From: an uncultured Nitrospiraceae bacterium
GTDB lineage: Bacteria > Nitrospirota > Thermodesulfovibrionia > Thermodesulfovibrionales > Dissulfurispiraceae
Assembly (NCBI GenBank): GCA_963727805.1
Contig: CAVSHF010000005.1
Span: 1 to 64,000 of the forward strand
DNA: 64,000 bases
Direction of reading: 5' to 3'
The notes beneath the pieces are model-generated. The model saw only the letters and a program-made list of their open reading frames with translations. It was not told the DNA's origin and ran no database searches. Positions 10,148 to 57,253 of this stretch are shown here, piece after piece. Each line of letters begins with the position of its first letter. Position 1 is the stretch's first letter. A program made the translations under genes and the position numbers.

Positions 10148-10241
10148 CTACTGAAAGTCATTGATTTTACCGGTACCAGTAATTTGGTGATTACCCAGAT
10201 AACCTATCATCACCGGTTTGTCGAGTGTCTCCTTGTAACAC
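10148..10241 (+). repeat. Type-B dispersed site, interrupted by IS21
   Basis: CTACTGAAAGTCATTGATTTTACCGGTACCAGTAATTTGGTGATT; colinear with the 63481 copy for ~100 bp. Confidence 0.8.
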
Positions 10242-15017: not shown

Positions 15018-15218
15018 GGTACCCCCTTAGTTGTTTTCGATAAGGTTATCCGCTGAGAAGTGGGCAGCATACCACTTCTGTAACTCCTGATTACTTGTTA
15101 GGTAACGTCCTCCACCCCAAGACAGCCGACCGATTCAAACGAAGGCGCGAGAATCCACTGCTCGTGTCCATAATTTTCCAGTTCTCTTTTGCTATGACTC
15201 CGTACCTCCCTTGTCATT

Positions 15219-15941
15219 TCACTTATTCGATTTTGCATCACCATACTTCTTCTCTTTTCTGATCTTATAGATAGAAAGCATTTTCTTGACAACGAGAGGA
15301 AAGAGCCCCAGAAGCGCAAAGGAGATGATCAACCCCGGAGAAAGAATTCCAGAGAGCGAGTCGATCTTTGCTATTTCCTTACCTGCATTCACATATACTA
15401 CGGTCCCAGCCAACATTCCAATCTGAGAAACCCAGTAGAAGGTTCTAAGCGGCATCTTCGTGAGCCCCATAACAAGATTGATAAGCCAAAAAGGAAAGAT
15501 AGGGATCAATCGTAAAGTAAACAAGTAAAAATTTCCCTCCATCGCGATCCCCTCGTTGACCTCTTTGAGCTTGTCTCCAAACCTCCCCTGTACCCAGTCT
15601 CGTAAGACAAAACGAGATACGAAACACGCTAAGGTTGCACCGATTGTGCTTGAGAAGGAAACTACAATGGTGCCTATCAATAATCCGAAAAGCGCTCCCC
15701 CTGCAAGAGTCATGATTGCGGCACCTGGCAAAGATAATGACGTCACGAGGATATAGATAACCATATATGCCGAGATCACGATGAGGCGGTGATTGGCGTA
15801 GAGGACAGCCAAAGTCGCCTGAGACGCCTTGACATAAGAAAGGGTAAAATACTGTCCGAGGCCGAGCACCTTAAAGAGTACTGCCAGTCCGACCACGAGG
15901 GTTACAACTATTATCCTCTTTGTGATGTTTTTATTAATCAC
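15219..15941 (-). CDS. TVP38/TMEM64 (DedA-like) membrane protein
   Basis: LSLPGA, LRLIPIFPF, SQIGMLAGT. Confidence 0.88.
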   Translation of the reverse strand: MINKNITKRIIVVTLVVGLAVLFKVLGLGQYFTLSYVKASQATLAVLYANHRLIVISAYMVIYILVTSLSLPGAAIMTLAGGALFGLLIGTIVVSFSSTIGATLACFVSRFVLRDWVQGRFGDKLKEVNEGIAMEGNFYLFTLRLIPIFPFWLINLVMGLTKMPLRTFYWVSQIGMLAGTVVYVNAGKEIAKIDSLSGILSPGLIISFALLGLFPLVVKKMLSIYKIRKEKKYGDAKSNK

Positions 15942-15989
15942 TCTTTTTGCCTTGACCCCTCATGATCGGGTAATCCTGGGCCAACATTG

Positions 15990-16598
15990 TCAATGCCCCG
16001 CCGAGCTCCCCCACAACTCCTCAAGCCGGTGGTCACGACCGCACCTGCCACGGTAGTATTTATAGCGGATCGGGTTCTTCTTATAATAATGCTGATGGTA
16101 GTCCTCGGCGGGGTAGAACTCAGTCGCTTGCACGATCTCGGTAACAATTGGCTCCTTGAAGGGTTTGCTCTTCTCTAATGTCTCCTTCGACTTCATTGCC
16201 AACCGCTTCTGCTCCTCATTATGATAAAAAATAGCGCTGCGATACTGATGCCCCGTATCGCAGAACTGCCGGTCCTTGACAGTCGGATCGATATTGTGCC
16301 AAAACACGTTGAGGAGCTTATCATACGTCACTTTTGTAGGATCATAAACGACCTGAACTGATTCGGCGTGCCCAGTCCCGCCTGCGGATACTTCTTTGTA
16401 AGTAGGATTTTTTTTCTGACCGCCAGTGTAGCCCGATGTGACTGAAATAACACCCGGAATCTGGTCAAAGGGGTGCTCCATGCACCAAAAGCAGCCACCA
16501 GCGAAGGTTGCTTTCTCAAGATTCCGTTCCGCCATGACCATCGTCATGGTTAAAAGCGCCGCCGACAGTCCTATTACCAAGATAATGAGAGTTTTCAT
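15990..16598 (-). CDS. msrA: Peptide methionine sulfoxide reductase A (exported)
   Basis: FAGGCFWC, GYTGG, TGHAE, AEDYHQHY. Confidence 0.95.
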   Translation of the reverse strand: MKTLIILVIGLSAALLTMTMVMAERNLEKATFAGGCFWCMEHPFDQIPGVISVTSGYTGGQKKNPTYKEVSAGGTGHAESVQVVYDPTKVTYDKLLNVFWHNIDPTVKDRQFCDTGHQYRSAIFYHNEEQKRLAMKSKETLEKSKPFKEPIVTEIVQATEFYPAEDYHQHYYKKNPIRYKYYRGRCGRDHRLEELWGSSAGH

Positions 16599-16713
16599 AG
16601 TCGTTCCTCCTCAATAATTGTTACAAGTAAATGCTCTTCGAGCTGGGTTGCTATCAGACAGCTGTATTAATACTGGCGATTTCAACCCTGTTATTGAAAA
16701 TATGGTCATTTAA

Positions 16714-17010
16714 CTATTTAACTGTTCCGAGATAAGTACCAGCCTTCTTTAAGGCCCGTTCCATTTCCTCAATCGTAATCACTGCTGGATCATAATAGAC
16801 GGTGTTTATTTCTTTAAAGTATTGAAAGCCTTTTTCGACCCTCGTCACTCCCTTCAGCCCTTCCAGGGCCTCCTTGCCAACGTCAAATCATTTGACATAG
16901 AAGATCACCTCAGATGTTACAGCATCCAGTGCGAGGGAAACCCCATAACCTGGAATGAGGAACATCGCTAGAACAAAAAGAGTCAGAGACTGAACGATTC
17001 GCTTCTTCAT
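16714..17010 (-). CDS. Putative selenoprotein with HMA-like fold (in-frame TGA at codon 41)
   Basis: Signal peptide-FYVK-TGA-FDVGKEALEGLKGVTRVE...VYYDP; reading frame open on both sides; hairpin GCCCT-GGA-AGGGC 18 nt after the TGA. Confidence 0.65.
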
Positions 17011-17303
17011 ATCATCACCTTCCCTTCAGTTTACTCTCTAGCCACGTTGTGTCAAGTGCTCATAAGCTAATATCCATTCGCCGTGTTCGTTCAAACGAGG
17101 ACCAGTCTAATCGAACTTAACGATTGTGATCTGAATAAAACCATGCAGAACTTTAGCATCAAGAAAAATATCATGAGGAGCTTGGCAAATCAACGTACTA
17201 TGTCCAGAAGAATCAGATCCCGGTGAAACTCAAGCTCGAAAAATATAGCCTCATCTGTGGCAGCAACTTTTATCTTATCCATTGTCTTGATATACTTATA
17301 TTC

Positions 17304-17906
17304 ATGAAAAAGAATTATCTCATTCACTTGCTTATCGGCATCCTCCTTCCGTCAGTCATCATTATGAATGCCTGTTCACAGAATTCTGATCGGCCAGTAA
17401 CGAAGGTCTCTGACACCGCATCAACAGTAGTCTCCGCCAAGGATGCTGCCAATGATCCATGGAGAACCTACGTGAAACCATCTAAAGAAGAGTTGAAAAA
17501 GAAACTTACCCCAATGCAATACAAAGTGACTCAGGAAAAAGGCACGGAGCCGCCTTTCAGAAATGAATACGATGACAACAAGAAGGAAGGTATCTATGTC
17601 GATATCGTATCCGGGGAGCCGCTGTATAGTTCAATAGATAAATTTGATTCAGGAACAGGGTGGCCGAGTTTTACAAAGCCGCTCGAACCCGGCAACATAG
17701 TCGAAAGAGAAGATCGTGGGCTTTTTACGACGAGGACGGAAGTACGCAGCAAGCATGCCGACTCTCATCTTGGGCACGTTTTCACCGATGGTCCCAAGCC
17801 GACCGGATTGCGTTATTGCATGAACTCAGCGGCCCTACGCTTCATCCCTAAAAAGGATCTCGAAAAAGAGGGATACGGACAATACCTGCAACTGTTTCAA
17901 AAATAG
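17304..17906 (+). CDS. msrB: Peptide methionine sulfoxide reductase B (lipoprotein-like N-terminus)
   Basis: [29 protein letters not shown]. Confidence 0.95.
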
Positions 17907-17951
17907 CCCCGAACCGCCTCTCGCCATATCTCCGACCAAACCACAAAACTC

Positions 17952-17995
17952 CTACTGAAAGTCTTTGATTTTACCAGTATCAGGAATTTGGTGAC
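17952..17995 (+). repeat. Type-B dispersed site
   Basis: CTACTGAAAGTCTTTGATTTTACCAGTATCAGGAATTTGGTGA. Confidence 0.8.
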
Positions 17996-18293
17996 AGCTG
18001 TTAGAAATATTGATTCTGTGCTTTCTTTAAACAGGGCAAGCCTGCATTCAAGGGTATGTTAGTTATAAACAGTCTGTATGATCAAATTTTCTGCATATAT
18101 CCCCAGCATGTTTACCGAACAACCTCTGTCTGGCTGCCTGTCCGAATGTGTTAGTTGCCGGCACTAAACATTCACACGAAATATCGAGACATACGTTTAC
18201 CCCACCTCTCTAAAGCATTTTTTTTTGAGTGCTTTGGGAGGCAATCAACGGTCAGAAGGACGCTTTCGCACGTATCAAATGCGTCAATTAACA

Positions 18294-18665
18294 TTAAAGG
18301 GTTTGCTTGATCGAAGTTACCGTAACTTCAAGGACACGAGTTAAAAAGGAGAATTTAGCCTTCATCATATCGAATTCTGCACCTGAGGATATGAATTTTG
18401 CAGTCCCCTCAATAAGGAAACCAGCACCAAGTCCTCTATGCCCATTTACTTCTTTACTCCCGACGGTGAGCAGAACTTTATTATTCTTAAGCACTTTCTT
18501 TTCAGTCTTTCTCATCGCATAAGCAGGAATGAGCAGCCTTCCGTCGTTTGGGATTACGAGATAGGTATTCCAGGTATTTACCACGTGCGCTTCATTATCA
18601 GCGCATGAAACTATAGAAACAACGCCTTCTTTACTTATTACCTCCAAAAACTTGTCTGTGAACAT
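18294..18665 (-). CDS. FMN-binding / pyridoxamine 5'-phosphate oxidase family protein
   Basis: EGVVSIVS, HVVNTWN, GFLIEGTA. Confidence 0.8.
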   Translation of the reverse strand: MFTDKFLEVISKEGVVSIVSCADNEAHVVNTWNTYLVIPNDGRLLIPAYAMRKTEKKVLKNNKVLLTVGSKEVNGHRGLGAGFLIEGTAKFISSGAEFDMMKAKFSFLTRVLEVTVTSIKQTL

Positions 18666-18803
18666 ATTCACGCTCCCCCCTGAAATTTTATTATGGATAT
18701 AATGTATCCATGATGTATAATATAATATGCTGAAAGAATAGTCAATACATTCTTTCATAAAAAAGTTATACTATTTTGCCGAAATCGTGAGAGGAGATAA
18801 TAG

Positions 18804-19645: not shown

Positions 19646-19705
19646 CTACTTAAAGTCATCGCCTCAGAGACACGGCATATCATACAAGCTTTCTTCCAGA
19701 AATCT
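19646..19705 (+). repeat. Type-A dispersed site
   Basis: CTACTTAAAGTC-N30-GCTTTCTTCCAGAAATC. Confidence 0.8.
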
Positions 19706-20154: not shown

Positions 20155-20240
20155 AGTGTTGAAAAAGGCTACCTACCCGCGAGGATAGGGCGCAAAGATA
20201 CGGGTCCCTCGGTATCGAAGGATTGCCGGTCTGCCATGAC
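20155..20240 (+). ncRNA. c-di-GMP-I (GEMM) riboswitch
   Basis: GGCTA-CCTACC-CGCGAG-GATAGG-GCGCAAAG...GGGTC...GATTGCCGGTCTGCC matches the GEMM-I pattern. Confidence 0.8.
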
Positions 20241-20297: not shown

Positions 20298-20639
20298 GTA
20301 CCGATCAATCGTATAAAGCATTAGAAGCAGAGGCACAAGCCTAAGCTTTGTATAGCTTATAGCTTTGCTCGGAAAATCTCCTGTGAGTCCGATCTGTTTT
20401 GCACTTTTAGATGTCGAGTACTTTTCCAGTTTGATTAGCTGTCTGCATTGTTTCTTGAGGTGTCCGAATGGCAGATTCTAATGCAGTAAAAAAGAGCAAA
20501 CTCGGGATGAGATCTGGAAGATGTGCCGTAAATATCTTTTCCAGTCGTCATAAAAAGCTGGGATAGCAGTATGGATGAAACTTAAGATAATCTATATAAA
20601 ACAAAGGTGCGTGCGGCTTTGAAGCTTCGGCCCAAGAAC

Positions 20640-21959
20640 ATGAATATAGCCAAAAAAATATTGCTCGGTTACGGGATTCTTCTAATCCTAGTCTTTTTCC
20701 ATCTCGTTTATGCCCTTTCGAGCATCGATCAGATGGACAACATCAATACAACTATCACGAAGGTCAATCAACCCCTTCATGAACTCACAGGCGAGCTTGC
20801 CGAAAATCTCCTGGAACAGGAATTTTACAGTCAGCGTCTTGTAATCCTGAATAATGAAGAGAGTTTCGAGCTCTTGCAGATGAAATTCCGGGACTTTGAC
20901 AATCTTCTAAATCAGATTGGTTCGATCAACAGCACTTTTGTCCCAGTCCGGAAGCTGTCCGAAAAGTGTGCAGTTTTCCGTGTCCTTTTGTACGAGCACT
21001 ATGGCTCACTGAATGCGGCCCTTGCCCTGTCAAGGCAGAATATTGATCTTGTCGGTGAGAAGCGGGAGGAACTTATAGAAAACGCCAAACATGTCGGTAC
21101 CGAGATACGCCGGGACCAGAACAGCAGGATCGAACTGAGCGGAGAGATCGGGACAAGGGCGTATCGGCTGCTTTTGGTCTTCGGCATTGGGTCGATCTTT
21201 ATGGCAGCAGGTATCACATTCTTACTTGCGCGCTCCATTGCACGCGCCGTCGGTCAACTGAAACTATCGACGAGGCAGATCGCGGCCGGTAAGTTTGAGG
21301 AGGTCAGGTGCCTGATGCGTGCCGACGAGTTCGGCGATGTGTCGCGAAGCATTGCAGGAATGGCCAGGAAGCTTGCGCACCTCGAAAAACTTTATCTCGC
21401 TACCAATCCCCTTACGCTGCTGCCTGGAGGACTCGCTATCGATGATACCCTTAAATCACGCCTTGACGCAGGCGTGCCAACGGCTCTCTGCGTTATCGAC
21501 CTCGATAACTTCAAGGCCTTCAATGACCGGTATGGCTACTCGCGGGGCAATGAAGTCATTCAGACTACAGCAATGATTATAACAGCTGCGGTCAAAGAGT
21601 CGGGAGCAGCCGATGACTTTATCGGGCACATAGGTGGGGACGATTTCATAGTCGTAACTTCGCCGGAAAGGTATGAGGACATCTGCAAGGTCATCATCAG
21701 GAGTTTTGATGAGAATATTCTTTCATTCTATGACCAAGAAGACAGGCAGGGAGGGACCATTGTCGGCGTGAACCGGCAGGGTGTTGAGGTAGTTTTTCCG
21801 CTCATGACCATATCGATAGCAGTTGTAACCGACCAGGGCGGGTCAATCAAGGAAACACATATTCTGAGCAGGCGGGCTGCCGAGCTGAAGGAACATGTCA
21901 AATCCATGTCAGGCAGCGTCTATGCAGTCGACAAACGACGTTTCAATGAAGAGAGATAA
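20640..21959 (+). CDS. Membrane sensor-HAMP-GGDEF protein
   Basis: Two TM segments, HAMP (DEFGDV), DLDNFKAFNDRYG, GHIGGDDF. Confidence 0.9.
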   Translation: MNIAKKILLGYGILLILVFFHLVYALSSIDQMDNINTTITKVNQPLHELTGELAENLLEQEFYSQRLVILNNEESFELLQMKFRDFDNLLNQIGSINSTFVPVRKLSEKCAVFRVLLYEHYGSLNAALALSRQNIDLVGEKREELIENAKHVGTEIRRDQNSRIELSGEIGTRAYRLLLVFGIGSIFMAAGITFLLARSIARAVGQLKLSTRQIAAGKFEEVRCLMRADEFGDVSRSIAGMARKLAHLEKLYLATNPLTLLPGGLAIDDTLKSRLDAGVPTALCVIDLDNFKAFNDRYGYSRGNEVIQTTAMIITAAVKESGAADDFIGHIGGDDFIVVTSPERYEDICKVIIRSFDENILSFYDQEDRQGGTIVGVNRQGVEVVFPLMTISIAVVTDQGGSIKETHILSRRAAELKEHVKSMSGSVYAVDKRRFNEER

Positions 21960-23700: not shown

Positions 23701-24197
23701 GTAAACATACCTTCCTTCATATTTATAAATGTTCTCTGTAATTAGCAGATTATATCAAATAGCAATGAGTAATATTATGGAAAGTTTAACAGGCAACAGA
23801 TACTGTGAGATTCTTACGGAAATAAACAACCGGAGAGAATCGCTGGACTGCCGACTTCTTGGTGTTCTCGAAAACTAACCACTGGGAAGTTCGAATAAGC
23901 GTCAATCCGCTGCGAAGTTGCGGATTGACGTGTGAAGGACTAAGCCGCTGTGCGGATATGTCAATTCAATCGAAGATTATCCTTCCTTATACTATCGGCA
24001 GTGGCATCTTTTAGGATATATAGGAGCAAGTCTTGCTGAACAAGGCTGATAGGCAGCGTCTTTAATGCCCCTGTTTGACCTTTGCGATGATGTGCAAGGG
24101 CCGAAAGTGGCGTTTTCGGACAACAAGACCGTGTTGCGAAAAGAGATGTTTTTTTCGCGGGGCGATATTGAGGCGATTTTTGAAACGACCACGGTTT

Positions 24198-25394
24198 TCA
24201 TCGGCATTGCTCCGGAGGATCGTTGCAGCGGCGGGGAGGCAGAATCTCAATTCGGCGCATCTTGCCTTTTTTGCAAACGGGGCAGGTGGTGACGTCAATG
24301 CCGCAGATCCTTAGCAGCTGTTCCTGCCAGGTCTCAGGCTTGTCCTGCTCTTTCATTACGGTGTTGTGACTGTCAAGAAGCTCGCGGCATGCAGCAATGT
24401 TATCTCTACGTTTCCTGTTTGCCAGCAGGCCGAAGTGCCTTATCCGAACGTATCGATTCGGCAGTACATGCAGAAGGAATCTTCTGATGAACTCATCGGC
24501 CTGCAGAGTCATCACCTTGTGCTTATCGTCATCTGCGTAATCACGCCATTTGAACGAGACCTTGCCGTTTTCGGCCTCGATTATACGATTGTTGCTGATG
24601 GCGATCCTGTGCGTATATCGGCCGAGATATTGCAGGACGCCGCCAACTCCGTCGAAGGGCGGTTTGCAGTAGACAACCCACTTCTTGTGATAAAGCTTTC
24701 TTCTGAGCATCTCGAAGGTATGGGAATCGCCGAGATGACTTATTCCTCCGGGAAAGATAAGATCACCCGCTTCAAAGATCCTTTTCAGATGATCGAGGAA
24801 CTTTCCCCGGAACAACGCCGACATTACCCTGACCGGAATGAAGAAGCCTTTGCGGCAGGATACCCAACTGTCTCCGTCGCAAGACAGGCCGCCTCCGGTG
24901 ACGACACAGTGGATATGGGGATGGTCCATCAGATTCTGCCCCCAGGTATGAAGGATGCTGATGAAGCCGATGCGGGCACCGAGATGCTTCTGGTCATTTG
25001 AGAGTTCGGTGAGAGTTTCGGAGACACAACGGAACAGCAGATCATACATGACCTTCTGATTCATTATGACAACCGGATTGAGTTCCGACGGGATAGTGAA
25101 AACTACATGGAAGTACTGGATGGGCAAAAGGTCCTGTTGTCTGGCCTCAATCCACTGTTCTTTTTTCAGGGTCTGGCATTTGGGACAGTGCCTGTTCCGG
25201 CAGGAGTTGTAGGATATCTCGACGTGGCCGCAATCCTCGCACTTGTCCCTATGGCCTCCGAGTGCTGCCGTCCTGCATATCTCCACGGCGTGCATGGCCC
25301 GCAGATGACGAAGAGGCAAGGAATGAGACTGCCGATAATCGGAGCCGTAGCGGCGTAAGATATCCGCCACCTCCACACCACGAGACTGGCGCAT
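24198..25394 (-). CDS. IS91 family (Y2 HUH) transposase with Zn-binding domain
   Basis: CRTAALGG, SCRNRHCPKCQ, HTWG...HPHIH, YLGRY. Confidence 0.93.
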   Translation of the reverse strand: MRQSRGVEVADILRRYGSDYRQSHSLPLRHLRAMHAVEICRTAALGGHRDKCEDCGHVEISYNSCRNRHCPKCQTLKKEQWIEARQQDLLPIQYFHVVFTIPSELNPVVIMNQKVMYDLLFRCVSETLTELSNDQKHLGARIGFISILHTWGQNLMDHPHIHCVVTGGGLSCDGDSWVSCRKGFFIPVRVMSALFRGKFLDHLKRIFEAGDLIFPGGISHLGDSHTFEMLRRKLYHKKWVVYCKPPFDGVGGVLQYLGRYTHRIAISNNRIIEAENGKVSFKWRDYADDDKHKVMTLQADEFIRRFLLHVLPNRYVRIRHFGLLANRKRRDNIAACRELLDSHNTVMKEQDKPETWQEQLLRICGIDVTTCPVCKKGKMRRIEILPPRRCNDPPEQCR

Positions 25395-25415
25395 CTGGAT
25401 TTACGGCTCAGAGTG

Positions 25416-26261
25416 CTACAGATATTTTTTAGTTGCTATGTCCAGCGGACTGACAACTTTTGCCAGATTCATCTTGCTGACATGAAGATAAACGGTCGTG
25501 GTCGTCGGTGACCTGTGCCCAAGAAGCAGTTGGACATGATGAAGACTAGTCCCCGCCTCGATAAGGTGTGTCGCAAAACTATGCCTCAGAGTATGCACGC
25601 AAGCATTCTTTGCGATGCCGGCGCGTTTCTTGGATTTTTGGAATATCTGGTAGATGGAGCTTATAGTGATATGGGTGTTGTCCTTCTCGCCTTCAAATAA
25701 CCACTCCTCCGGGCGATATTCCCTCCAATACTGTCTTAAGCACTCAAGGGCAGTCTGCGATAAGATGGAGTAACGGTCCTTTGCCCCTTTTCCAAGACGG
25801 ACATAAACCAGCATACTCTTGCTGTCGATATCTGTCACCTTCAGTCGCGCAGCTTCACTTATTCTCAACCCGGCAGAATAGGTGATCATCAGAAGCGCCT
25901 TGTGCTTGATGTTTTCAGTGACTGAGAAAATCGCCTGGACTTCGGACAAATCCAAAACGAGAGGCAGCTTCTTCTGGGCTTTCGGATATTGAATATTATT
26001 GACTACATCCGCACGATTCAGGGTCGTATTATAAAGGAACTTGATCCCGGCCACATAGGTTCTGTATGTCCCCCTCGTTAAACCCCTTTCTTCCATAAGA
26101 TGAACCAGATACTGCTTCACTTCCTCTGTACTCAGTTCTTCAGGAGACTTGCCGAAATAATTCTCAAGGTTACCGACTTCCCGGAGATATTTCCTTTGGA
26201 CACCAAGCGTAATGCCCTTCAACTGAAGATCCTGCAGCAACCGTTCTTTCAACGCGCTCAT
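25416..26261 (-). CDS. Tyrosine recombinase associated with IS91-like transposase
   Basis: YSAGLRISE, GKGAKDR, HTLRHSFATH, LLGH, TTVY; no IntI-specific insertion. Confidence 0.92.
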   Translation of the reverse strand: MSALKERLLQDLQLKGITLGVQRKYLREVGNLENYFGKSPEELSTEEVKQYLVHLMEERGLTRGTYRTYVAGIKFLYNTTLNRADVVNNIQYPKAQKKLPLVLDLSEVQAIFSVTENIKHKALLMITYSAGLRISEAARLKVTDIDSKSMLVYVRLGKGAKDRYSILSQTALECLRQYWREYRPEEWLFEGEKDNTHITISSIYQIFQKSKKRAGIAKNACVHTLRHSFATHLIEAGTSLHHVQLLLGHRSPTTTTVYLHVSKMNLAKVVSPLDIATKKYL

Positions 26262-26447
26262 AATACAATCTCCTTTGAAACTGTTTTCTGCCAGCTCATG
26301 CCGGCAGCACAGCAAAGAGAGATTGTAAAAAGACTTCGATGGTTCAACAAAGAAATGTGATCAGGCAAAAGTGGCTATTCGAAAAAGATGGTACTACTAC
26401 TGATAGGCCCTTGCTAATCGAATCCACCGCGCAGCGGTTTAGTCCTA

Positions 26448-26507
26448 CTACTTAAAATCTCAATCGAGGCGCATGGTGCCTGGGGTAGAGATTATTCCTG
26501 GAAATCG
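26448..26507 (+). repeat. Type-A dispersed site
   Basis: CTACTTAAAATC-N30-GATTATTCCTGGAAATC. Confidence 0.85.
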
Positions 26508-26551
26508 TTGTGCAAGCAGCCACCCAAAGTTATCTCTCGCCGTCAATTTTC

Positions 26552-26580
26552 TTGACAATGGCGCCATTTTCTGCTGTAAT
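26552..26580 (+). promoter_or_regulatory. sigma70-like promoter within repeated module
   Basis: TTGACA-17-TGTAAT; same arrangement at 29049-29077. Confidence 0.65.
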
Positions 26581-26624
26581 GTGAGAAAACTCGGTAATAA
26601 CAATGTTGGGGCAAGGATCAAAGA

Positions 26625-27002
26625 ATGATCACTGAGAACGAATTAACTGAAGCCTTTGATAAGGCTCTGATTAAAGGACCAGAGAATTTGGATGGACGTG
26701 ATCGTCAACTTTACCTCATTCAGGATTTCATACTTGAGTGGGAAAACGGGGCTTTTACTGGATACTTATATAATAAGATTCCAGATTGGAAATATATTAA
26801 CGAGACAATTTCAGCCATGAAGACTCATGGGTTAACCGATCTGTCAAACATTGTAAAAGAAGCAGTCGACCTTTTTCAAAACTATGAGGAACCCTATCCT
26901 ACAACCACTTGGTCAGGCGTTCTTAAATTGTATGATCCATCTGGCAAATTGCAGGATTTGGACGGCAAATGCAAGAATCTTACTAACTATGGAATACACT
27001 AA
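26625..27002 (+). CDS. Hypothetical protein (DUF4375-like), cassette-like gene
   Basis: E.ENG.F..Y.YN; preceded by GTTGGGG and followed by an attC-like site. Confidence 0.7.
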   Translation: MITENELTEAFDKALIKGPENLDGRDRQLYLIQDFILEWENGAFTGYLYNKIPDWKYINETISAMKTHGLTDLSNIVKEAVDLFQNYEEPYPTTTWSGVLKLYDPSGKLQDLDGKCKNLTNYGIH

Positions 27003-27005
27003 TAA

Positions 27006-27066
27006 CCCCAACAATTTGCTGCAACTGAGCGCAAAAAGCCGCGCTTGGTGAGCCCTATGTAATATT
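27006..27066 (+). repeat. attC-like site
   Basis: ACCCAAC...GCTGCAACTGAGCGC...GCGC...GTGAGC...GTAATAT directly after the stop codon. Confidence 0.55.
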
Positions 27067-27245
27067 GTTTGTTTCTTTCGGCAATTATCGAATGCGTGAT
27101 ACTTGCGCTAGTAATGACTTCTTGGTGAAATTATTGACCCGATAGTCAAAAAAGGTGATCACCCAAATCGATTGTTTCTGCACGTACCCTTGATTGCCGG
27201 CTTGCTCTGTTTAAAAAAAATACAGTATCAAGGTTTCTAATGGCT

Positions 27246-27295
27246 ATCACCAAATTCCTGATACTGGCAAAAGAAATGACTTTCTTAGTTACATC
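27246..27295 (-). repeat. Type-B dispersed site (inverted) downstream of recombinase
   Basis: ATCACCAAATTCCTGATACTGGCAAAAGAAATGACTTTC-TTAGTTACATC; matches the reverse complement of 10141-10192. Confidence 0.8.
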
Positions 27296-27485
27296 CAATG
27301 GCCGGGCTCCAATGATACCTCTGAGTCAGTATAGGCAGTCTATGCTCAAGAGTAGTGATTTCTATAATAATCTGGTACCTTTTGACATGCTTCGGCATAT
27401 AAACCCAGTAGCGATACGGCAGTTAAAGTACAATCGTCGCTCTTAAACTCTGCAGACCTTGGCAATCGAAATTTAGTTTATGTTC

Positions 27486-28325
27486 CTATTTACCATGCAG
27501 AATGTCCATCCACCTGATGGCCTCGGTGTCGCTGATCTTTCCCAAGTAGATCTGGGTAGTTTTCAGATCCTGATGCCTGAGTAAGACTTTTGAGATGATC
27601 TCAAGTGGGACACCATTCCTGCTGGCATAAGTAGCTGAGTGCCTTCGAAGATCATGAGGCGATATGCTTACGTTCAACTTCATGCCGAGTCCGGTGACCA
27701 GGTTCCATACCGTACTGTAACAAACAGGAAACACCCTGTCGGACGGGGACAGTTTCTGACTGGCAATATACTCAGCTAACCTAACAGAGATATGTTCTGG
27801 CATGAAGGCCAACTCCTCGTCCTTGCCCGATTTGGGGCCTTGGATAATGATTTTCCGGCCGGAGACATCTGCTGCGCGAAGGTTAAGAACTTCCCCAATT
27901 CTTAGCCCGCAGCGCGCTTGAAGTTCCAGTATTAGCCGATCTCGGGTATTTTTGGACTTGAAGATGATCTCATCCACTGTTTCTTTGTCCAGAATCTTTC
28001 GGGGCCGATGTTGGGCCATTTTGAATGTTTTTGACAGTGATGCCGTACTGCAGGGACTCTTGATGTTCAAGTCGGTAGCTTCGATGATGTAGTTAAAAAA
28101 CGATTTTATCTGAGCATACCGGAGATGGCGCGTGGACCTGCTCAAACGTTCGGTGCACTCCTCTAGAAATCTGCAGATGTCATCGGAAGATACAGACTCC
28201 ACCGGTTGATCAGAAAAGCTCATCTGTAACTGGGTTAGAAACCCTCCGTAACTCCTTATGGTATTTTTCTTCACGTTACCCTTCTGATGCTGCTTGAAGA
28301 GTTCAACTGCCTCTCGGATAGTCAT
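27486..28325 (-). CDS. Stand-alone Xer-like tyrosine recombinase (279 aa)
   Basis: GLRIGE (R), PKSG (K), HDLRR (HxxR), LRH, TQIY (Y); GGAGG RBS; all catalytic residues intact. Confidence 0.92.
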   Translation of the reverse strand: MTIREAVELFKQHQKGNVKKNTIRSYGGFLTQLQMSFSDQPVESVSSDDICRFLEECTERLSRSTRHLRYAQIKSFFNYIIEATDLNIKSPCSTASLSKTFKMAQHRPRKILDKETVDEIIFKSKNTRDRLILELQARCGLRIGEVLNLRAADVSGRKIIIQGPKSGKDEELAFMPEHISVRLAEYIASQKLSPSDRVFPVCYSTVWNLVTGLGMKLNVSISPHDLRRHSATYASRNGVPLEIISKVLLRHQDLKTTQIYLGKISDTEAIRWMDILHGK

Positions 28326-28497
28326 ATCACACCTCCGTTGTTTAGCCAGGGTCTGCATAGTTTCAGTGTACGACACAATCAGCCATGTGGTATTATTGTG
28401 CCAATCATGAGCGAAAAACGCCCAAGAGTGGCAGTCAATATGATATTGGAAGAAATGCATCTTTAATAACAGTTATCCGGTGAGGGGGTATCTAGAC

Positions 28498-28821
28498 ATG
28501 GCCGAGATGACGTGGTCCAAGACTGAAAAAGAATTAGCACGCCGGATATTTGACAACGCGTATCGAAGGGAGTGTGATTCGATCGCCGCTAGGCTCAAGG
28601 AAATGATTGCATGGGTGTCCAAGCCATCCGACATGTGGGAAATTCATAACTATCTCACTGAGCAAAGGGACTTAACTGACGCCAAATACGATTACAGATA
28701 TAGTAGGCTCATATTAGTGTTCGCACAACTCTTGGATGAGGGATGGATCAATGAGAAGGATCTCGAAGGGCTGCGCGAAGAGAAGATTGATAAAATAAAA
28801 AAGATGGCTGCATTTAGATAG
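28498..28821 (+). CDS. Conserved small hypothetical protein
   Basis: WSKTEK...AY.RE...YDYRYS.L..VFA.L..EGW. Confidence 0.7.
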   Translation: MAEMTWSKTEKELARRIFDNAYRRECDSIAARLKEMIAWVSKPSDMWEIHNYLTEQRDLTDAKYDYRYSRLILVFAQLLDEGWINEKDLEGLREEKIDKIKKMAAFR

Positions 28822-28945
28822 TACTGGTCTCCATTCTGTAAAAACTGGATGTTGCCCCAAAACTTCTTCTGAAAGGCTTCAATGCGCAGAGTATGACGAA
28901 ATCAATGATTATCAAAATTTATTATTGAAATCGGATTCGCGCTAA

Positions 28946-29100
28946 CTAATTAAAATCTCCATCGTGGCACATTGGGTTCGAGGGAAAGATTATTTCTGGA
29001 AATCGTCGCTGCCATGGCACCCAACGTCATCTTTCGCCGTCAGTTTTCTTGACAATGTCGTCATTTTCTGCTGTAATTTTAAAAGCTCGTTAATAACATT
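28946..29100 (+). repeat. Type-A site plus promoter module (paralog of 26448-26600)
   Basis: CTAATTAAAATC-N30-GATTATTTCTGGAAATC...TTGACA-17-TGTAAT...TAATAACA. Confidence 0.85.
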
Positions 29101-29196
29101 CTTACGATATGTCAGCCGGCTCGAAGAAGATAATAATTTGAGTAGTCGGCATTTGTCCCTTCATCGAGCAAATATGCCGGCACAGTCATGAAGAGG

Positions 29197-30297
29197 TTAC
29201 TTTTTTGCGCCGGCTTTCTTTAACATCTCGACCAGATATATGCGTTGCCAGGCAATAGCAGCTCTTAGAGCGGTAGTATTATTATTGCTCCTCGCATTAA
29301 CATCTGCTCCCTTATCGATAAGGAGTTTAACAACTTTTTCCTGGCCTGCCGCCCTTGATTTACTCTTGGTCTCGGTGCATGCCAGCATTAATGGGGTAAG
29401 ACCTCCGCCGCCCTTCGCGTTCAGATCCGCACCTTTGTCAATGAGGATCTTTGCCATATCGCTATTCCCCGCAAATGCAGCGTTCCCTAAAGCGGTTCCA
29501 CCCGTATTATCTTTTGCATTGACATCAGCTCCATTATCGACAAGCAGTTTGACAACGTCTAATCGGCCATCTGCCGTTTCCTTGTCATCCAACAAACACG
29601 CCAACATTAATGCAGTATATCCGGCTTGGTCCTTCGCGTTCAAATCCGCACCGCTGTCAATAAGGATCTTTGCCATGTCCACCATGCCAGAATCTGCGGC
29701 CGCCATTAAAACGGTTTTGCCTTTTTTATCTTTAGCCTTAACATCGACACCTTTTGCAATTAGCATTTTTAAAATCTCGGGGGTTTTATTATTGTAAACG
29801 GCAACAAAGAGCATATTCATTCCTGTAGTGGGCTCTACAAAATTAACATCTGCTCCCCTATCAATAAGTAGCTTTACTATCTCTACGCTAGGACTGGTCG
29901 TCGTGTGCGTTTCTGCACCAGTAACATACTCATAAGACTTGCCGTTGACCGCATAAATTAAAGCCGTTCTACCAAAAGAATCTTTTGCATTCACGTCAGC
30001 CTTATTGTCTAACAGCAGTTTTACAATTTCTATCCTCTGATTAGTTATCGCGACCATGAGAGGAGTCATCCCAATCCTGTTAGTATCCTTATCGTTAACT
30101 CCAATGCCTGCTTTGATGAACAAGTCTACCGTTTCTTTGTTGCCAGCAGCGATCTCCTTCATAAAACTCGCGCGCGAGTATTGAAGCCCTTTTCGTTCAA
30201 CATCCTTCTTATAGTCTTCACTGCCTTTACAACCACCTATCAGAAATAAGATGGAGCACAAGCACAATGACATCATTATTTTTACTAGCTTATTCAT
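29197..30297 (-). CDS. Ankyrin-repeat lipoprotein
   Basis: IGGC lipobox; multiple GADVNAKD..G.T.L repeats. Confidence 0.92.
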   Translation of the reverse strand: MNKLVKIMMSLCLCSILFLIGGCKGSEDYKKDVERKGLQYSRASFMKEIAAGNKETVDLFIKAGIGVNDKDTNRIGMTPLMVAITNQRIEIVKLLLDNKADVNAKDSFGRTALIYAVNGKSYEYVTGAETHTTTSPSVEIVKLLIDRGADVNFVEPTTGMNMLFVAVYNNKTPEILKMLIAKGVDVKAKDKKGKTVLMAAADSGMVDMAKILIDSGADLNAKDQAGYTALMLACLLDDKETADGRLDVVKLLVDNGADVNAKDNTGGTALGNAAFAGNSDMAKILIDKGADLNAKGGGGLTPLMLACTETKSKSRAAGQEKVVKLLIDKGADVNARSNNNTTALRAAIAWQRIYLVEMLKKAGAKK

Positions 30298-30547
30298 ATG
30301 CGCCTCCTCGACTGTACCTCCTAAATGGTACTTGACAGCGAAACAATTTTCAAGGAAATCTTTTGAGTTAGATTCTTGGGTACTTTCGACCAGTTTATGC
30401 TTCCATTTTTAACTTTCGGCCAATTTATGAGTACAGTCATATTGTGTGCGATGGAAGTTATTAATGGCGCAAGCGCCACTTTTGACTTCCACTCTGAGCA
30501 GGCCTCTTGAATTCCGAAATTAATCGTCGAAATCGGATCCTCGATAA

Positions 30548-30652
30548 CTACTTAAAGTCATTACCGCAGTGATACGGCTCATTACTCAAGTTTTCGTTCG
30601 GATGTCGATACCTGCGCTCGTCGGTTGAGAATGTTTGTGCCTACTGAAAGTC
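30548..30652 (+). repeat. Type-A site followed 93 bp later by a type-B start
   Basis: CTACTTAAAGTC at 30548; CTACTGAAAGTC at 30641. Confidence 0.75.
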
Positions 30653-30967
30653 CGCACATTGCGATAGACCGTCGCAATGTGAATTTCTGAGAATAACCTT
30701 TATCAGCAAGGCAGTCTCGCTCAAAAGAGTGAAAATAAAAATATTTGTTGCCGACATGTATGCAAAGAAGTATCATTGTGTCTAGGATGGCTCTATGGAA
30801 GCAAGATCGAGTTGAGGGACGAAATATTATATTGCAGACCTGACCCCGATGATTATTCTTTCCCCCATTGCATGTTACAATGACTCATGAATAACGAAGG
30901 ATCCATACTGATTTTTAAAGCACCCTCCTGTCCCTCGACCGGTCCAGCCTGCTGATTTGATATCTCT

Positions 30968-31654
30968 ATGCTGACACCTCCATATCTTGTCAATGAACAC
31001 TATGATGACCGTTACTTTGATGTTGTAAATGCCATTGAAAAGGCCAAGCATATCTATTTTGAGGGCACATGCATTATCGACATGCTTAAAAAACGCTCCG
31101 GGCTCAGCATTGGCGAAACGGGCTTTGGCGCTGGTCGCCTGCTTATCTCGCTCATGGATTATTTAGACGACTCCGACATGACTGACATTGCGATAACCTA
31201 CAACTCCGCAGAACTGCATCCAATCTCCAGCGAGCGTATGGCATCCATACTGGAAGGATTCATTGAACCTGTCGGACATTTAATAGATCAGCTCGTGCGG
31301 GCATACGGCAGCATTGATACAACAAGATCCGGATGGCACCAAATACAACTGACCCAGCCTTTTGGCACAATTACCCTTAATCTCTACATCGGCGAAGCCC
31401 TCGAAATGGTCAACGCACTTGCAACGCGCTGCGACGCCTGGTTTTTGGACGGCCATGGACCAAAGAAAAATCCAGCCATCTGGCGGCCTGAGCTGCTTAT
31501 GGCGATCGGAGAAAAAACAGCTTCTGGCGGGACTTGCGCCACATTTACAGTCGCGGGAGCTGTCCGCCGCGGCCTCGCATCAGCAGGATTCAGTGTTGAA
31601 CAGGTCCCCGGCTTCGGCGGGAAAAAGGCTGTGCTTAAAGGAGTGAAGAATTAG
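30968..31654 (+). CDS. MnmC N-terminal-like (MnmD) methyltransferase domain protein
   Basis: IGETGFGAG, DAWFLDG..PKKNP, TFTVAG.VRRGL, GFGGKK. Confidence 0.8.
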   Translation: MLTPPYLVNEHYDDRYFDVVNAIEKAKHIYFEGTCIIDMLKKRSGLSIGETGFGAGRLLISLMDYLDDSDMTDIAITYNSAELHPISSERMASILEGFIEPVGHLIDQLVRAYGSIDTTRSGWHQIQLTQPFGTITLNLYIGEALEMVNALATRCDAWFLDGHGPKKNPAIWRPELLMAIGEKTASGGTCATFTVAGAVRRGLASAGFSVEQVPGFGGKKAVLKGVKN

Positions 31655-34744: not shown

Positions 34745-35445
34745 CTACTTATAATCGCGAGTCCGCCCGTTAAGCTACAGATACGATGGTCGAGTAGGCC
34801 GGTGGAATCGCACCACCAGCCCCTCACAGATTCCGTACGTGAACCTCTCGATTCATACGGCTCGTGTCAATCATCAAGTTGAGTCTTTGCAGTCTCAACC
34901 ATACACATTGAGCGATAGTTCCTCCTGGTCACCCAGTTGACTGGTACTCTTTGTGGATTGACCCATCCCCTTCCCTCCACGGCTTATTATCACCGCTTCA
35001 TCGGTACTATTGGACGGTCCGACCCCTTCACCTGCATCGATACTTTCCCCCTTCGTTTGCACTTATAGGGTTTTCTCTTAGCATCAGATGAAGAGTTCCC
35101 GCGTTCCACACAGGAGCCTAGATCAGCTTCATGCCGCCTCTATGCCGGACGCCGTTCAGGCAGTAAACAGGTATCTCCTGAACTAATCCTGATGCAAAGT
35201 AAGAACATCAGTTTTGACGTCGTCCTTTTCCTTTCGACACCTCATCAGCGGTTCGCTTACGCTCATCTCTCTGATCCATCCCTGACACGATCTAGTCGTG
35301 CCTTTTCCTTTAACGCTCACCACCGGAGCCTTTCGACTACAGCAGCTTAAGGTGGGTTGAAGCCTGCTCCTGCAAGCCGGCTTCGAGGGGCCAACCCTCA
35401 TCTTCCTGTGCAGCCTCGTGGCGCACTTACGACCGGAAAGTATCT
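34745..35445 (+). repeat. Type-A site interrupted after +44 by an ORF-less intron
   Basis: CTACTTATAATC...TG|intron|TTACGACCGGAAA. Confidence 0.8.
34789..35426 (-). ncRNA. ORF-less group II intron, copy 1 (638 nt)
   Basis: 5' GTGCG; domain V GAGCCGTATGAA...CACGTACGGA; 3' ...CTCGAC; 5' domains highly similar to the RT intron at 45111-46945. Confidence 0.9.
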
Positions 35446-44612: not shown

Positions 44613-45110
44613 AAGCCTTCCCACCCAAGTGACCAGATTATTGCCAAGGTCGTCCCGTCGGACTCCTTTCTTCTTTGATAAATCCGCACGGCACTGCTGG
44701 TTCATTTATTTAGTTGCTGTTGCTTGACTCTGCCTGTTTCGTGATAGAATTGAGAAACCATAGAATAATCTTAAAGGAGACTATTAGATCAAGGAGTTGA
44801 TAAATGGAGAGAAATATTCAACGCGAATTTATGGCAGCGCCGTGGTTTGTCGGTCTTTGGGCAGTTTGGGGAGCTGCATGTTTACTCACTGTATTTCTAA
44901 AATTGCTAATGGGTAAATGGATAATTGCAACATGCTATTTAATAATGGCTTCCTCAATGGCTTTTCTTGTTTATAGATTTTTAAATAACCCAATAATTAA
45001 ATTCCGCATTGACTCAATTGAAATTCTGAACGGGCCTATGTTCTCTGTGAGACATATCTCGAACTCTGATATTTCGCGTCTCGAAAATAAGAGCAATTCT
45101 AAATATAGGA

Positions 45111-57003: not shown

Positions 57004-57253
57004 ACTCTACACTGCGGATATTTTGCCACAGTAACAGTTACCGTTTGTAACCCTCGCACCAAGACCACAATTCAAAATGCGGTGTTCATGTCGTAAATCT
57101 CACCGAAGTAGATCAGCAGAGCCAGGTTAACGCCCCCACTTCAAGCAGTCAATAAGCACAATAAACCTGTGATTGCTAACGGTAGTAGGACATTTCCTCG
57201 GGGTCACCGTGGGAATGTTTCACTGTCAATCGCCATTTCTGCTACTATCTACT

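Follow-up and report, generated by a model that had tools for sequence, protein, structure and literature searches.

The window, as we call the whole 64,000-nt stretch of DNA analysed here, comes from the genome of an uncultured Nitrospiraceae bacterium (G000) and carries an array of short repeats of the CTACT type, with the gene of a tyrosine recombinase embedded among them. The question this locus raises is whether that enzyme is the catalyst of the array. The earlier note argued that it, or a paralog elsewhere in the genome, recombines the CTACT sites. We believe this holds up only in part: the coupling of the motif to the gene and the orientation the two share speak for it, but their distribution across genomes, the failure of an analogy with attI and the inverted orientation of the gene in the window speak against it.

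The array is real. All 20 hits of the CTACT motif in the window lie on one strand, against 0.83 expected. Two of its sites are made up as follows.

28946 to 29004, plus strand: array site with Box 1 CTAATTAAAATC (28946-28957), a 29-nt variable stretch and right arm AGATTATTTCTGGAAATC (28987-29004).
26448 to 26506, plus strand: array site with Box 1 CTACTTAAAATC (26448-26459) and right arm GATTATTCCTGGAAATC (26490-26506).

The second of these is followed on its 3' side by a promoter (TTGACA-17-TGTAAT) and then by a DMP19-like gene at 26625-27002. This is how the modules are built: they are small accessory genes with promoters of their own, which stand at variable distances 3' of the right arm. 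There are 43 sites in the genome as a whole, while nine sampled relatives from the same family have neither sites nor the recombinase, and no array synteny was found between the window and the nearest relative. Contig C5 has 24 of its 25 sites on the plus strand, a count that is powerless as a test of replication-strand bias because most of these sites lie in one array.

The sites do not fall into a known class of structured element. Rfam gives no gathering-level match to the sites over the window and, even at E <= 1, no match over positions 26000-31000 or over locus L087. Single-strand DNA folds of 19 sites share no common hairpin, and RNAalifold applied to 33 cores reaching from Box 1 to the right arm returned 0 pairs and no consensus structure. 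Complementarity between the left and right arms is weak, reaching at least 11 of 16 positions in 12/51 sites versus 2/51 when shuffled. The boxes of attC sites have the consensus RYYYAAC...GTTRRRY; a classical attC reading was rejected because inspection by eye gave no consistent GTTRRRY partner around the motif. A sigma-70 or sigma-54 promoter reading of the core from Box 1 to right arm was also rejected, since by eye the spacings do not fit.

Another recombinase in the window needs to be considered as well.

23892 to 26449, minus strand: IS91-family insertion sequence of 2558 bp, encoding a Y2 transposase and a 299-aa tyrosine recombinase of its own.

The earlier note reported no phage or ICE genes nearby. 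This is literally correct, but the IS91-family element with a tyrosine recombinase of its own lies only ~1 kb from the gene. It is present in 8 near-identical copies (99.9-100%) genome-wide. The end of the copy in the window abuts Box 1 at 26448; no other IS end abuts a site, and three others are ~70-250 nt away from one. Its recombinase (25416-26315) was rejected as the array catalyst on account of these distances and of being part of this multi-copy IS, and at 22.7% identity it is unrelated to the 279-aa enzyme. The window also contains four IS110 elements, an IS21, an IS200, two IS5-like elements, an IS1380-like element, an IS630 and three group II introns. In two cases a group II intron is inserted at +44 from Box 1, and sites have received IS ends too.

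The recombinase gene itself can be delimited with some care.

27486 to 28325, minus strand: coding sequence of the 279-aa tyrosine recombinase, with its stop codon at 27486-27488, placed from Pfam and homolog lengths.
28326 to 28460, minus strand: in-frame upstream extension of the open reading frame, with which the full frame would be 324 aa.
28365 to 28370 in plus-strand numbering, read on the minus strand: putative -10 box TACACT, by analogy with homologs.

The open reading frame in full runs from 27486 to 28460, but the gene itself begins with the ATG at 28325. Most of the best 120 homologs listed have exactly 279 aa, so the extension is probably not translated. It holds instead a Shine-Dalgarno sequence, the left arm of an inverted repeat and the putative -10 box. 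Homologs have TATAAT or TACAAT 7-12 nt ahead of the inverted repeat, and by analogy the promoter of the window's gene would lie at 28365-28370. The protein is Xer-like and consists of core-binding and catalytic domains only. Pfam recognises Phage_integrase (7.9e-19) and, at the N-terminus, a SAM-like domain, and the PF00589 score of 68.5 bits against a curated cut-off of 27.1 places it in the tyrosine recombinase superfamily. Among 116 aligned homologs, 115-116 retain R142, H224, R227, H251 and Y260, and all 116 retain K165. The homolog lengths, the Pfam result and these residues confirm the earlier description of an intact 279-aa R-K-HxxR-H-Y recombinase. Its gene is present once in its own genome and has 2,598 homologs at E <= 1e-5 across several phyla.

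Judged by its sequence, this intact gene is neither IntI nor the host XerC/D. With the integron integrase model TIGR02249 it reaches 50.1 bits, where the cut-off is 265, and aligns to model positions 13-180 alone, which bears out the claim that the IntI-type insertion is absent. A second IntI model, NF011946, scores 20.8 against 435, the IntI4 structure 2A3V is matched at E 9.1e-4, and the gene is embedded inside arrays, not placed at the array head beside an attI. The Xer side is closer. The nearest solved structures are XerA (4A8E at 2.4e-22, and 5HXY) and XerD (1A0P at 1.7e-12), and the top NCBIfam match is archaeal XerA (NF040815). One could argue from these relatives that the enzyme is a third housekeeping recombinase of the XerC/D type, resolving chromosome dimers at a dif-like site. 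We consider this very improbable, and the distribution of the gene already contradicts it. Every Xer model scores far under its cut-off (119.5 against 220 for NF040815, 76.4 against 329.6 for TIGR02225 and 67.7 against 335.15 for TIGR02224, the XerD and XerC models), the genome already has two better Xer-like genes (C3:1509022 and C5:138338), and in place of the near-universal vertical inheritance of XerC/D the gene is patchy, with up to 3 copies per genome and near-identical copies between genomes.

The gene is surrounded by the following features.

28345 to 28358, minus strand: IR-L, left inverted-repeat arm ATGCAGACCCTGGC, with the exact 8-nt core TGCAGACC, complementary to IR-R at 12 of 14 positions.
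27450 to 27463, minus strand: IR-R, right inverted-repeat arm, ~25 nt past the recombinase stop.
27357 to 27470, minus strand: recombinase-adjacent site copy, with GATTGCC, GGTCTGCAG, the CTACTGGGTTTA box (27411->27400) and right arm GATTATTATAGAAATC (27372->27357), these boxes being assigned by analogy.
27242 to 27289, minus strand (27289->27242): second inverted CTACT-type site, ACTAAGAAAGTC then CCAGTATCAGGAATTTGGTGATAGCC, 197 nt past the stop.
28464 to 28478, plus strand: junction TAATAACAGTTATCC, in the 5' leader of the FRP-like gene.
28480 to 28821, plus strand: divergent FRP-like small gene, 113 aa from GTG, with an ATG at 28499 (PF18032, 4.5e-24).

A repeat copy begins just past the stop codon in every homolog examined, from Nitrospirota, Syntrophales and other phyla. 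All inspected homolog loci have the same downstream layout of left arm, GGTCT box, Box 1 and right arm, and it is because of this conserved layout that the boxes of the window's adjacent copy can be assigned as above. The wording of Box 1 tracks lineage, being CTTCCTGAAGTC in Syntrophales and CTACTC or CTACTT in Nitrospirota. The earlier note had overlooked this copy right behind the stop. The inverted type-B site that it described about 200 bp downstream is there too; it is of the same module class (family D12) as the sites at 10148 and 17952, and its profile match is weak (E 0.84).

An inverted repeat of 9-15 nt flanks the recombinase reading frame on both sides and covaries between lineages. 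Exact complementary runs of at least 9 nt around the frame occur in 40/59 units versus 2/59 shuffled controls, and compensatory variants (AAAGATCTC, AAAGGCC, GCAGATCCCG) are found among the 59. In the window IR-R overlaps the left-arm-like GATTGCC of the adjacent site (plus strand 27461-27467). None of the 59 units, which come from assemblies and contigs that drop minority forms, has its reading frame inverted relative to promoter and site. The promoter modules upstream of the recombinase find matches solely upstream of other recombinase copies.

The upstream side had been likened to an intI-attI-cassette arrangement. Both the junction and the divergent small gene, a member of the fluorescence-recovery-protein family, are real, but the analogy does not hold. 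None of the 58 homolog loci has TAATAACA in the 300 nt upstream of the recombinase, and among 8 homolog loci checked for a divergent upstream reading frame the FRP-like gene stands beside the recombinase in the nearest relative, L001, only. Nor does the recurrence of TAATAACA in the window exceed chance: its 4 copies compare with 1.41 expected, 6 of 100 shuffles reach 4, and two of the copies are not independent because both hold one position of a repeated promoter module, D14 (87% identical).

The recombinase and its site travel together as a unit. In the window the evidence for this comes from one block.

27200 to 28957, no strand assigned: block shared with locus L001 (89-95% identity) and with metagenome contigs (~98%), containing two inverted sites, the recombinase, the FRP-like gene and Box 1.

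The ~98% copies come from contigs of other freshwater-sediment runs. Comparison of L001 with the DNA beside the window (G000:C5:64001-82000) gives other matches of 65-92%, the longest of which (0.7-2.7 kb) are at 66-79%. The homology of the window to L001 and to contigs X2 and X3 stops within Box 1 (28946-28957) or at its 3' edge. The unit, ~1.0-1.8 kb long, is far more alike between genomes than other genes of those genomes are. One genome has two copies with different flanks that share 99.5% identity between IR-L and the right-arm end (1040 bp), and another genome (G102) has three copies, all inside co-oriented arrays. The gene is present in 8/101 and 13/81 genomes of two orders, a patchy distribution in which MAG binning could misplace short unit-bearing contigs. 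Unit and site together also occur in other phyla (L060 in Ignavibacteria, L043 in CSSED10-310), where the genomes hold 0-2 other repeat copies each. The boundaries of the unit vary. In Syntrophales it reaches from IR-L or GTAGGTG on the left to the right-arm end and measures ~1.0-1.15 kb; the window unit is ~1.76 kb long because the FRP-like gene and the second site travel along. Box 1 is the boundary of unit or cassette in the window and in the cassettes of another genome, G141. No pair of an empty and an occupied site was found.

If the enzyme acts on the repeats, the two should be associated, and here the evidence is divided. In its exact form the window motif shows no enrichment around 80 homolog loci (10 hits in 990 kb), but the lineage-adapted form of Box 1 is enriched, standing behind every homolog's stop codon, so the enrichment that the earlier note proposed as a check exists in the adapted form and not in the exact one. 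A site profile run over the homolog loci found 47 copies, 46 of them co-oriented with the recombinase; 24 of the 47 are outside the training set, and 23 of these 24 are co-oriented. In the window the recombinase runs opposite to the array, unlike in other genomes, where the two are co-oriented. Pairwise searches for further copies of a unit's own site matched 17 times on the plus strand and twice on the minus strand (shuffled queries 1 and 1), at 11/51 loci, and none in 12 of 12 Nitrospirota-type loci. Because the Nitrospirota-type loci gave no pairwise match, targeting of resident repeats amounts to co-location alone, in Syntrophales and in the window's genome.

The distribution across one order of 81 genomes is harder to reconcile with the catalyst idea. 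Sites are present in 58 of these genomes and the recombinase in 13, and 46 of the 58 are without the gene, including 7 of the 8 richest in repeats. These seven (G141, G118, G185, G171, G135, G166 and G113) have from 29 to at least 58 sites each and no homolog, their best tyrosine-recombinase matches being Xer-like at 23-30% identity. In G113 the 29 sites lie on one 2.92-Mb contig, judged from the matches and the fetched region. The expectation that genomes with the motif would have this recombinase family is contradicted by these counts. Sites are present in 12/13 genomes with the recombinase versus 46/68 without, which is not significant (Fisher p 0.096). The median is 7 sites with the gene versus 2 without, with a one-sided Mann-Whitney p of 0.015 that overstates the case because related genomes are not independent. 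The gene is also found in genomes with 0-2 sites. The window-type site model, R2, has 1 match in 100 other genomes of its order and is on that count too lineage-specific for a co-occurrence test there.

Arrays also exist without the gene. In G141 two arrays contain LuxR and PilZ modules whose homology extends from one Box 1 to the next, with the order of HU and PilZ swapped, a cassette-like exchange at the repeat. Its repeats also lie between ordinary genes, among them a 1256-aa GlnE-like and a 790-aa PFL-like gene, and a true IntI in this genome has none of these sites within 36 kb. Two further arrays, L086 and L087, are co-oriented at 10/10 and 6/6 sites.

The reading we lean to, with confidence a little short of even, is that the recombinase may be the integrase of a self-contained mini-element with a site of its own that is similar to the repeats and probably has them as its target. 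The element would consist of its own promoter, the 9-15-nt inverted repeat around the reading frame, the 279-aa Xer-like recombinase and one repeat of the lineage's type after the stop. The enzyme would bind the repeat copy that it carries as an attP-like site in cis and recombine it with resident copies of the same family as attB-like sites, and such recombination would insert the unit into arrays always in the same orientation. A by-product might be recombination between any two repeats, leading to deletion, inversion or shuffling of cassettes. The recombinase would then not have built the array, nor would the array depend on it. The intact catalytic set, the site coupled to the gene in cis, the covarying inverted repeat, the mobility of the unit, its travel with its site into other phyla and the orientation shared with neighbouring repeats are the observations in favour. 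A self-inserting element is likelier than an array builder because the repeats flourish in many genomes without the gene. We infer that the enzyme cleaves at the repeat, and any position of that cleavage is likewise our inference. The inverted orientation of the window unit relative to its array, the inconsistent unit boundaries, the lack of further own-site copies near the Nitrospirota-type units, the risk of misbinned contigs and the missing pair of empty and occupied sites count against a mini-element.

It is unlikely, in our opinion, that the recombinase serves an integron-like platform, acting in trans to capture, excise and shuffle cassettes at CTACT-type sites. Modules are exchanged exactly at the sites, as the divergence of the window from L001, X2 and X3 at Box 1 and the swapped modules of G141 attest, but exchange inside conserved repeats of 80 nt could equally well be homologous recombination. 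The arrays are co-oriented (20/20 in the window as well as in L086 and L087), their modules are small accessory genes with promoters, and the sites attract group II introns and IS ends as attC does. The higher median of sites with the gene, inflated by kinship as it is, points the same way, as does the absence of both sites and gene from the nine relatives of a genome with 43 sites. The gene-free arrays would have to be orphans under such a platform, like integrase-less attC clusters or MITEs minus their partner, yet they are the majority and include most of the richest genomes, site presence does not follow the gene significantly, and the gene turns up where sites are nearly missing. It also sits like a cassette within arrays and not at their head, there is no conserved attI-like feature, and the core has no consensus fold and little arm complementarity. 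Somewhat unlikely too is a passenger reading, in which the repeats are intergenic repeats of the host lineage and the recombinase gene is one frequent module among others. The repeats might then be regulatory, or be moved by homologous recombination, host Xer or another enzyme, and the true substrate would lie elsewhere, for example in the flanking inverted repeat (self-inversion or RNA-level control). That the repeats are abundant and form arrays without the gene, and lie between ordinary genes in G141, agrees with a passive role, and so does the module layout of the gene, which is that of its neighbours (right arm, promoter, gene, next site). The inverted repeat is moreover the most specific conserved non-coding feature of the family. 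But a passenger would not be expected to have a special site class and a covarying inverted repeat fused to its stop across phyla, or to carry the site into genomes without the repeat family, and the single orientation of all 59 units, as far as assemblies and contigs show it, speaks against a self-inverting switch.

It is useful to compare the locus with known systems. As in integrons, one-orientation arrays of 60-150-nt sites bound small accessory-gene modules, the sites serve both as points of module exchange and as hot spots for antisense group II introns and IS ends, and arrays without a recombinase exist. The enzyme here, however, is without the IntI-specific domain (50 bits against 265), its gene stands within the array and has a site joined to its 3' end, where an integron has it at the head next to attI, many modules have their own promoters, and the sites have neither RYYYAAC/GTTRRRY boxes, by eye, nor a supported hairpin. 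With Xer-dif, Xer-exploiting elements and plasmid dif modules the locus shares a simple two-domain recombinase nearest XerA/XerD and short modules between repeated recombination sites. It differs in that the recombinase scores under the curated cut-offs, has a patchy distribution with several copies in some genomes and has moved horizontally, and the sites, compared by eye, have no recognised resemblance to the dif consensus. Xer-exploiting elements encode no recombinase, and this unit does.

As with IS/MITE pairs and REP/RAYT, the repeat family is far commoner and wider than the enzyme gene with the same end sequences. GTAGGTG/GGTGCA, Box 1 and the right arm are common to the short repeats and the gene-bearing unit, and short 'empty' sites (GTAGGTG...Box 1...right arm) look like the unit minus its gene. 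The enzyme here is a tyrosine recombinase, however, not a DDE or HUH transposase, and the repeats are locally co-oriented, not randomly inserted; neither target-site duplications nor defined termini of the unit were found. IS1111-attC elements and group IIC-attC introns are likewise small mobile units found preferentially inside repeat arrays in fixed orientation. They target structured repeat sites and are not known to carry a copy of the target, the former using a DEDD transposase and the latter a ribozyme with reverse transcriptase. Neither the recombinase family nor the repeat is described in the titles and abstracts ranked highest by full-text literature searches, and the supplementary datasets of PMC8138268 may classify the family.

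Even on a conservative reading, two things are newly defined: a repeat family, undescribed so far, whose members mark where modules end and where insertions concentrate, and a recombinase unit whose reading frame is enclosed by an unusual covarying inverted repeat. The locus is also a clear case of a plausible inference, that a catalyst lies next to its sites, being contradicted by genome-wide distribution. A bolder joint claim, which we think improbable as a whole, is that of a second, IntI-independent cassette system with an Xer-like recombinase encoded inside its own composite site (Box 1 and right arm, ~80-150 nt). It would capture and shuffle promoter-bearing modules in anaerobic sediment bacteria of several phyla, its orphan arrays would outlast loss of the gene, and its sites would be landing pads for IS and group II introns. 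An enzyme gene of ~840 bp and a site of ~80-150 bp make a compact substrate set. If the enzyme does recombine the repeats, this would be a widespread system of gene-module exchange, not based on IntI, in anaerobes that are hard to culture.

The recombinase family has a single copy of the repeat tied to it in cis and is found among repeats, and the repeats neither require the recombinase gene nor track it. An earlier note proposed this gene as the catalyst of the array; its observation was largely right and its interpretation half right. The array it described is real. The window holds 20 matches to CTACTTAWARTC with at most one mismatch, all on the plus strand, against 0.83 expected, and none of 100 shuffles reaches 20. 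In a genome-wide search, 21 of the 30 forward-strand matches on this contig (C5) fall within its first 65 kb. About 30-36 variable nt past this motif (Box 1) comes another conserved box, the right arm GATTWYTTCYRGWAATC, and a profile of both boxes finds 43 copies in the genome (G000) at E < 0.01. C5 holds 25 of these, 24 on the plus strand, and smaller co-oriented clusters lie at C3:777-797 kb and C5:564-567 kb. Families D2, D7, D8 and D12, split by the repeat finder, all start at Box 1, and some sequences of these types run on into a sigma-70-like promoter and gene. The sites match no Rfam family and have no consensus fold; left and right arms are weakly complementary, with 12 of 51 sites reaching at least 11 of 16 positions versus 2 of 51 shuffled.

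Inside the array is an oxidative-stress gene run at 13569-18758 (pyridine-nucleotide-disulphide oxidoreductase, MsrA, an MsrB-domain protein, a PNPOx-like protein and an Rrf2 regulator), with sites following the MsrB-domain gene (17952). A c-di-GMP-I riboswitch aptamer (RF01051, 48 bits versus a gathering score of 35) lies at 20157-20238 (+). The array site at 19646 precedes it by about 500 nt, and a HAMP-GGDEF gene (20607-21959) follows it after about 370 nt. The aptamer would be the c-di-GMP-sensing leader of this diguanylate-cyclase-like gene.

The recombinase and its immediate surroundings are as follows.

27486..28460, minus strand: recombinase ORF; catalytic domain Phage_integrase (7.9e-19), core-binding domain N-terminal and SAM-like
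28345-28358 and 27450-27463: arms of an inverted repeat bracketing the ORF

A search of 5.8 billion proteins gave 2,598 relatives at E <= 1e-5. Since most of the best 120 are exactly 279 aa long, the start is the ATG at 28325, which bears out the 279-aa protein assumed earlier. The claim of an intact catalytic set holds as well: in an alignment of near-full-length homologs K165 is kept in 116/116, and R142, H224, R227, H251 and Y260 in 115-116/116. The closest solved protein is archaeal XerA (4A8E, 2.4e-22; 5HXY, 4.1e-15); E. coli XerD matches at 1.7e-12 and the integron integrase IntI4 only at 9.1e-4. Every curated NCBIfam model falls far under its own cut-off.

NCBIfam model scores for the recombinase
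XerA: 119.5 bits, cut-off 220 bits
XerD: 76.4 bits, cut-off 329.6 bits
XerC: 67.7 bits, cut-off 335 bits
IntI: 50.1 bits, cut-off 265 bits, only model positions 13-180 matched

The IntI score agrees with the observation that no IntI-type insertion is present. With 3.89 Mb in 5 contigs and 100% completeness, the genome carries the target in single copy along with two better Xer-like genes, and we find it scarcely credible that the target is a housekeeping Xer. The other tyrosine recombinases are an IS91-linked one in eight copies, one broken fragment and one 363-aa integrase-like gene; there is no IntI among those of the whole genome. The fragment (C5:71919-72134) lies about 7 kb beyond the last array site, outside the window. 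It covers PF00589 positions 93-162 with one TGA, and membership of the target family is not detectable in it.

We compared 80 homolog loci from species-representative genomes of Nitrospirota/Thermodesulfovibrionales, Syntrophales, Syntrophorhabdales and a few other phyla. The expected motif enrichment near homologs is found for a lineage-adapted Box 1 behind the gene but not for the literal window motif (10 matches in 990,283 nt, roughly what chance would give). The region past the stop codon has a common build in all loci inspected: a left arm (GATTACCnnTTGAAA), a GGTCT-containing box, a spacer of about 50-70 nt, Box 1 (CTTCCTGAAGTC in Syntrophales, CTACTC/CTACTT in Nitrospirota lineages), a spacer of about 35 nt and the right arm (ATTTCAAnCGGTAATC). 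With a degenerate Box 1 pattern there are 32 matches co-oriented with the gene and 10 opposite, versus 13 in total on both strands of shuffled loci. The profile HMM of Box 1 and right arm gives 47 matches at E < 0.01, 46 of them co-oriented; 23 of the 47 are training sequences, and among the others 23/24 are co-oriented. One genome (G102) has three recombinase copies, each within a co-oriented site cluster.

The inverted repeat is absent from the earlier note. About 26-45 nt separate its upstream arm from the ATG, and this arm sits directly past a TATAAT/TACAAT box; the downstream arm is about 25-40 nt past the stop codon. Exact complementarity over 9 or more consecutive nt occurs in 40/59 units versus 2/59 shuffled controls (mean run 10.2 versus 6.1 nt), and complementarity is preserved in the lineage variants CCCCAAAGACCTC, GCAGACCCTGGCA, AAAGATCTC, AAAGGCC and GCAGATCCCG. 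The repeat could possibly serve RNA 5'/3' end pairing, or both arms could be recognised by one protein. Orientation relative to promoter and site is identical in 59/59 assembled units, so these give no support for an invertible switch.

Sequence comparisons show this unit of promoter, inverted repeat, recombinase and adjoining site to be mobile. One genome has it twice (L024 and L025), and these copies agree at 99.5% identity across exactly 1040 bp, starting with the upstream repeat arm and ending on the right arm's last base, with different flanks on both sides. A 1758-bp block of the window (27200-28957) is present in the nearest relative, L001, at 89-95% identity; other matches between the adjoining C5:64001-82000 and the genome of L001 have 65-92% identity, with 66-79% for the longest (0.7-2.7 kb), and are scattered over its two contigs, not adjacent. 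The block recurs at about 98% identity on contigs from other freshwater-sediment runs, which depart from the window within Box 1 (28952-28954) and continue as another type of module. The gene is patchy, present in 8/101 genomes of the order and 0/9 of the family of G000, and in 13/81 of a Syntrophales-like order. Box 1 is the module boundary in three comparisons; for the Syntrophales unit it is the right-arm end or a GTAGGTG box. Such varying junctions inside an 80-nt conserved repeat are equally compatible with homologous and with site-specific exchange.

The likeness to an intI-attI-cassette layout did not survive. TAATAACAGTTATCC is located at 28464-28478; TAATAACA does not exceed chance in the window (4 observed versus 1.41 expected, with 6/100 shuffles reaching 4) and occurs within 300 nt upstream of the recombinase at 0/58 homolog loci. 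The divergent neighbor is beside the recombinase only in L001 among the eight homolog loci checked for it. This gene (28480-28821, plus strand) encodes a 113-aa fluorescence recovery protein (FRP) family member (PF18032, 4.5e-24), a cyanobacterial family, in a non-phototrophic Nitrospirota-like genome, and it travels with the recombinase in G000, L001 and metagenome contigs.

The sites are insertion hot spots for introns and IS ends. The window holds these introns and elements, at sites or elsewhere.

34789-35399, minus strand: ORF-less group II intron, identical to the copy at 62794-63404
62794-63404, minus strand: ORF-less group II intron, identical to the copy at 34789-35399
45105-46918, minus strand: group II intron with an RT-maturase ORF (45197-46435)
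23892-26449, minus strand: IS91-family element, 2558 bp, also at seven other places in G000
44-1162, 50918-52045, 55893-57068 and 60073-61275: four IS110-family (DEDD) transposase genes in the 64-kb array

The two identical ORF-less introns are antisense at +44 from Box 1 (34745 and 62750), 43-44 nt past the Box 1 of two different site classes, a placement resembling the use of attC sites by group IIC-attC introns. The IS91-family element codes for a 299-aa tyrosine recombinase of its own besides a Y2 transposase. It has eight near-identical copies (99.9-100%), four of them no more than about 250 nt away from a repeat site; the end of one, the window copy, abuts the Box 1 at 26448. Box 1 is replaced by an IS110 end at 61277, in the site immediately after the IS110 gene ending at 61275, and by an IS1380-like end at 40400. 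Because the IS110 family is known for sequence-specific targeting, the repeats may be IS110 targets.

The distribution of the gene and the sites speaks against the recombinase as catalyst of the array. The site model matches 58/81 genomes of the Syntrophales-like order (E <= 1e-4), and seven of the eight site-richest lack a homolog: G118 and G141 (at least 58 sites each), G185 (52), G171 (47), G135 (31), G166 (30) and G113 (29). A relaxed search of five of those seven found either nothing or Xer-like proteins of 23-30% identity and no others. Where the unit occurs in other phyla, the genomes have 0-2 sites in total, and 12 of 12 Nitrospirota-type loci showed no further nearby copy of the unit's own site. 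Sites occur in 12/13 genomes with the gene versus 46/68 without (Fisher p 0.096), and median counts are 7 versus 2, with the caveat that related genomes are non-independent. That the recombinase is an integron-like catalyst acting in trans, with orphan arrays where it is missing, is improbable in our opinion. G141, which has no copy of the gene, has dense co-oriented arrays (10/10 and 6/6 sites on one strand) among small accessory genes (Usp, hemerythrin, cupin, PilZ, HU, LuxR, FMN reductase), together with two larger genes, one GlnE-like (1256 aa) and one PFL-like (790 aa). Both arrays have LuxR and PilZ modules in common, Box 1 to Box 1. The LuxR module is 87% identical between its loci L086 and L087, with Box 1 at both ends, and paralogous HU and PilZ modules stand in opposite order (L086 10509-12484, L087 9377-11639). 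The two arrays are direct evidence that modules are shuffled where the recombinase is missing. A true IntI is present in G141 (TIGR02249, 481.9 bits; locus L095 16258-17325, G141:C4:42258-43325), broken by one in-frame TAA and followed by co-oriented small ORFs. No site of this repeat family lies within 36 kb of it, and the locus is a classical integron, distinct from the genome's repeat arrays.

The top-ranked matches of a full-text literature search hold no description of the recombinase family or the repeat, nor do the passages on Xer, simple YR and IntDes in PMC8138268, whose supplementary datasets may cover the family. That the unit is a passive module whose enzyme acts elsewhere seems to us unlikely. 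The reading we favor, and hold tentatively, is that the recombinase unit is a mini-element that would integrate itself, with the repeats serving as its landing sites.
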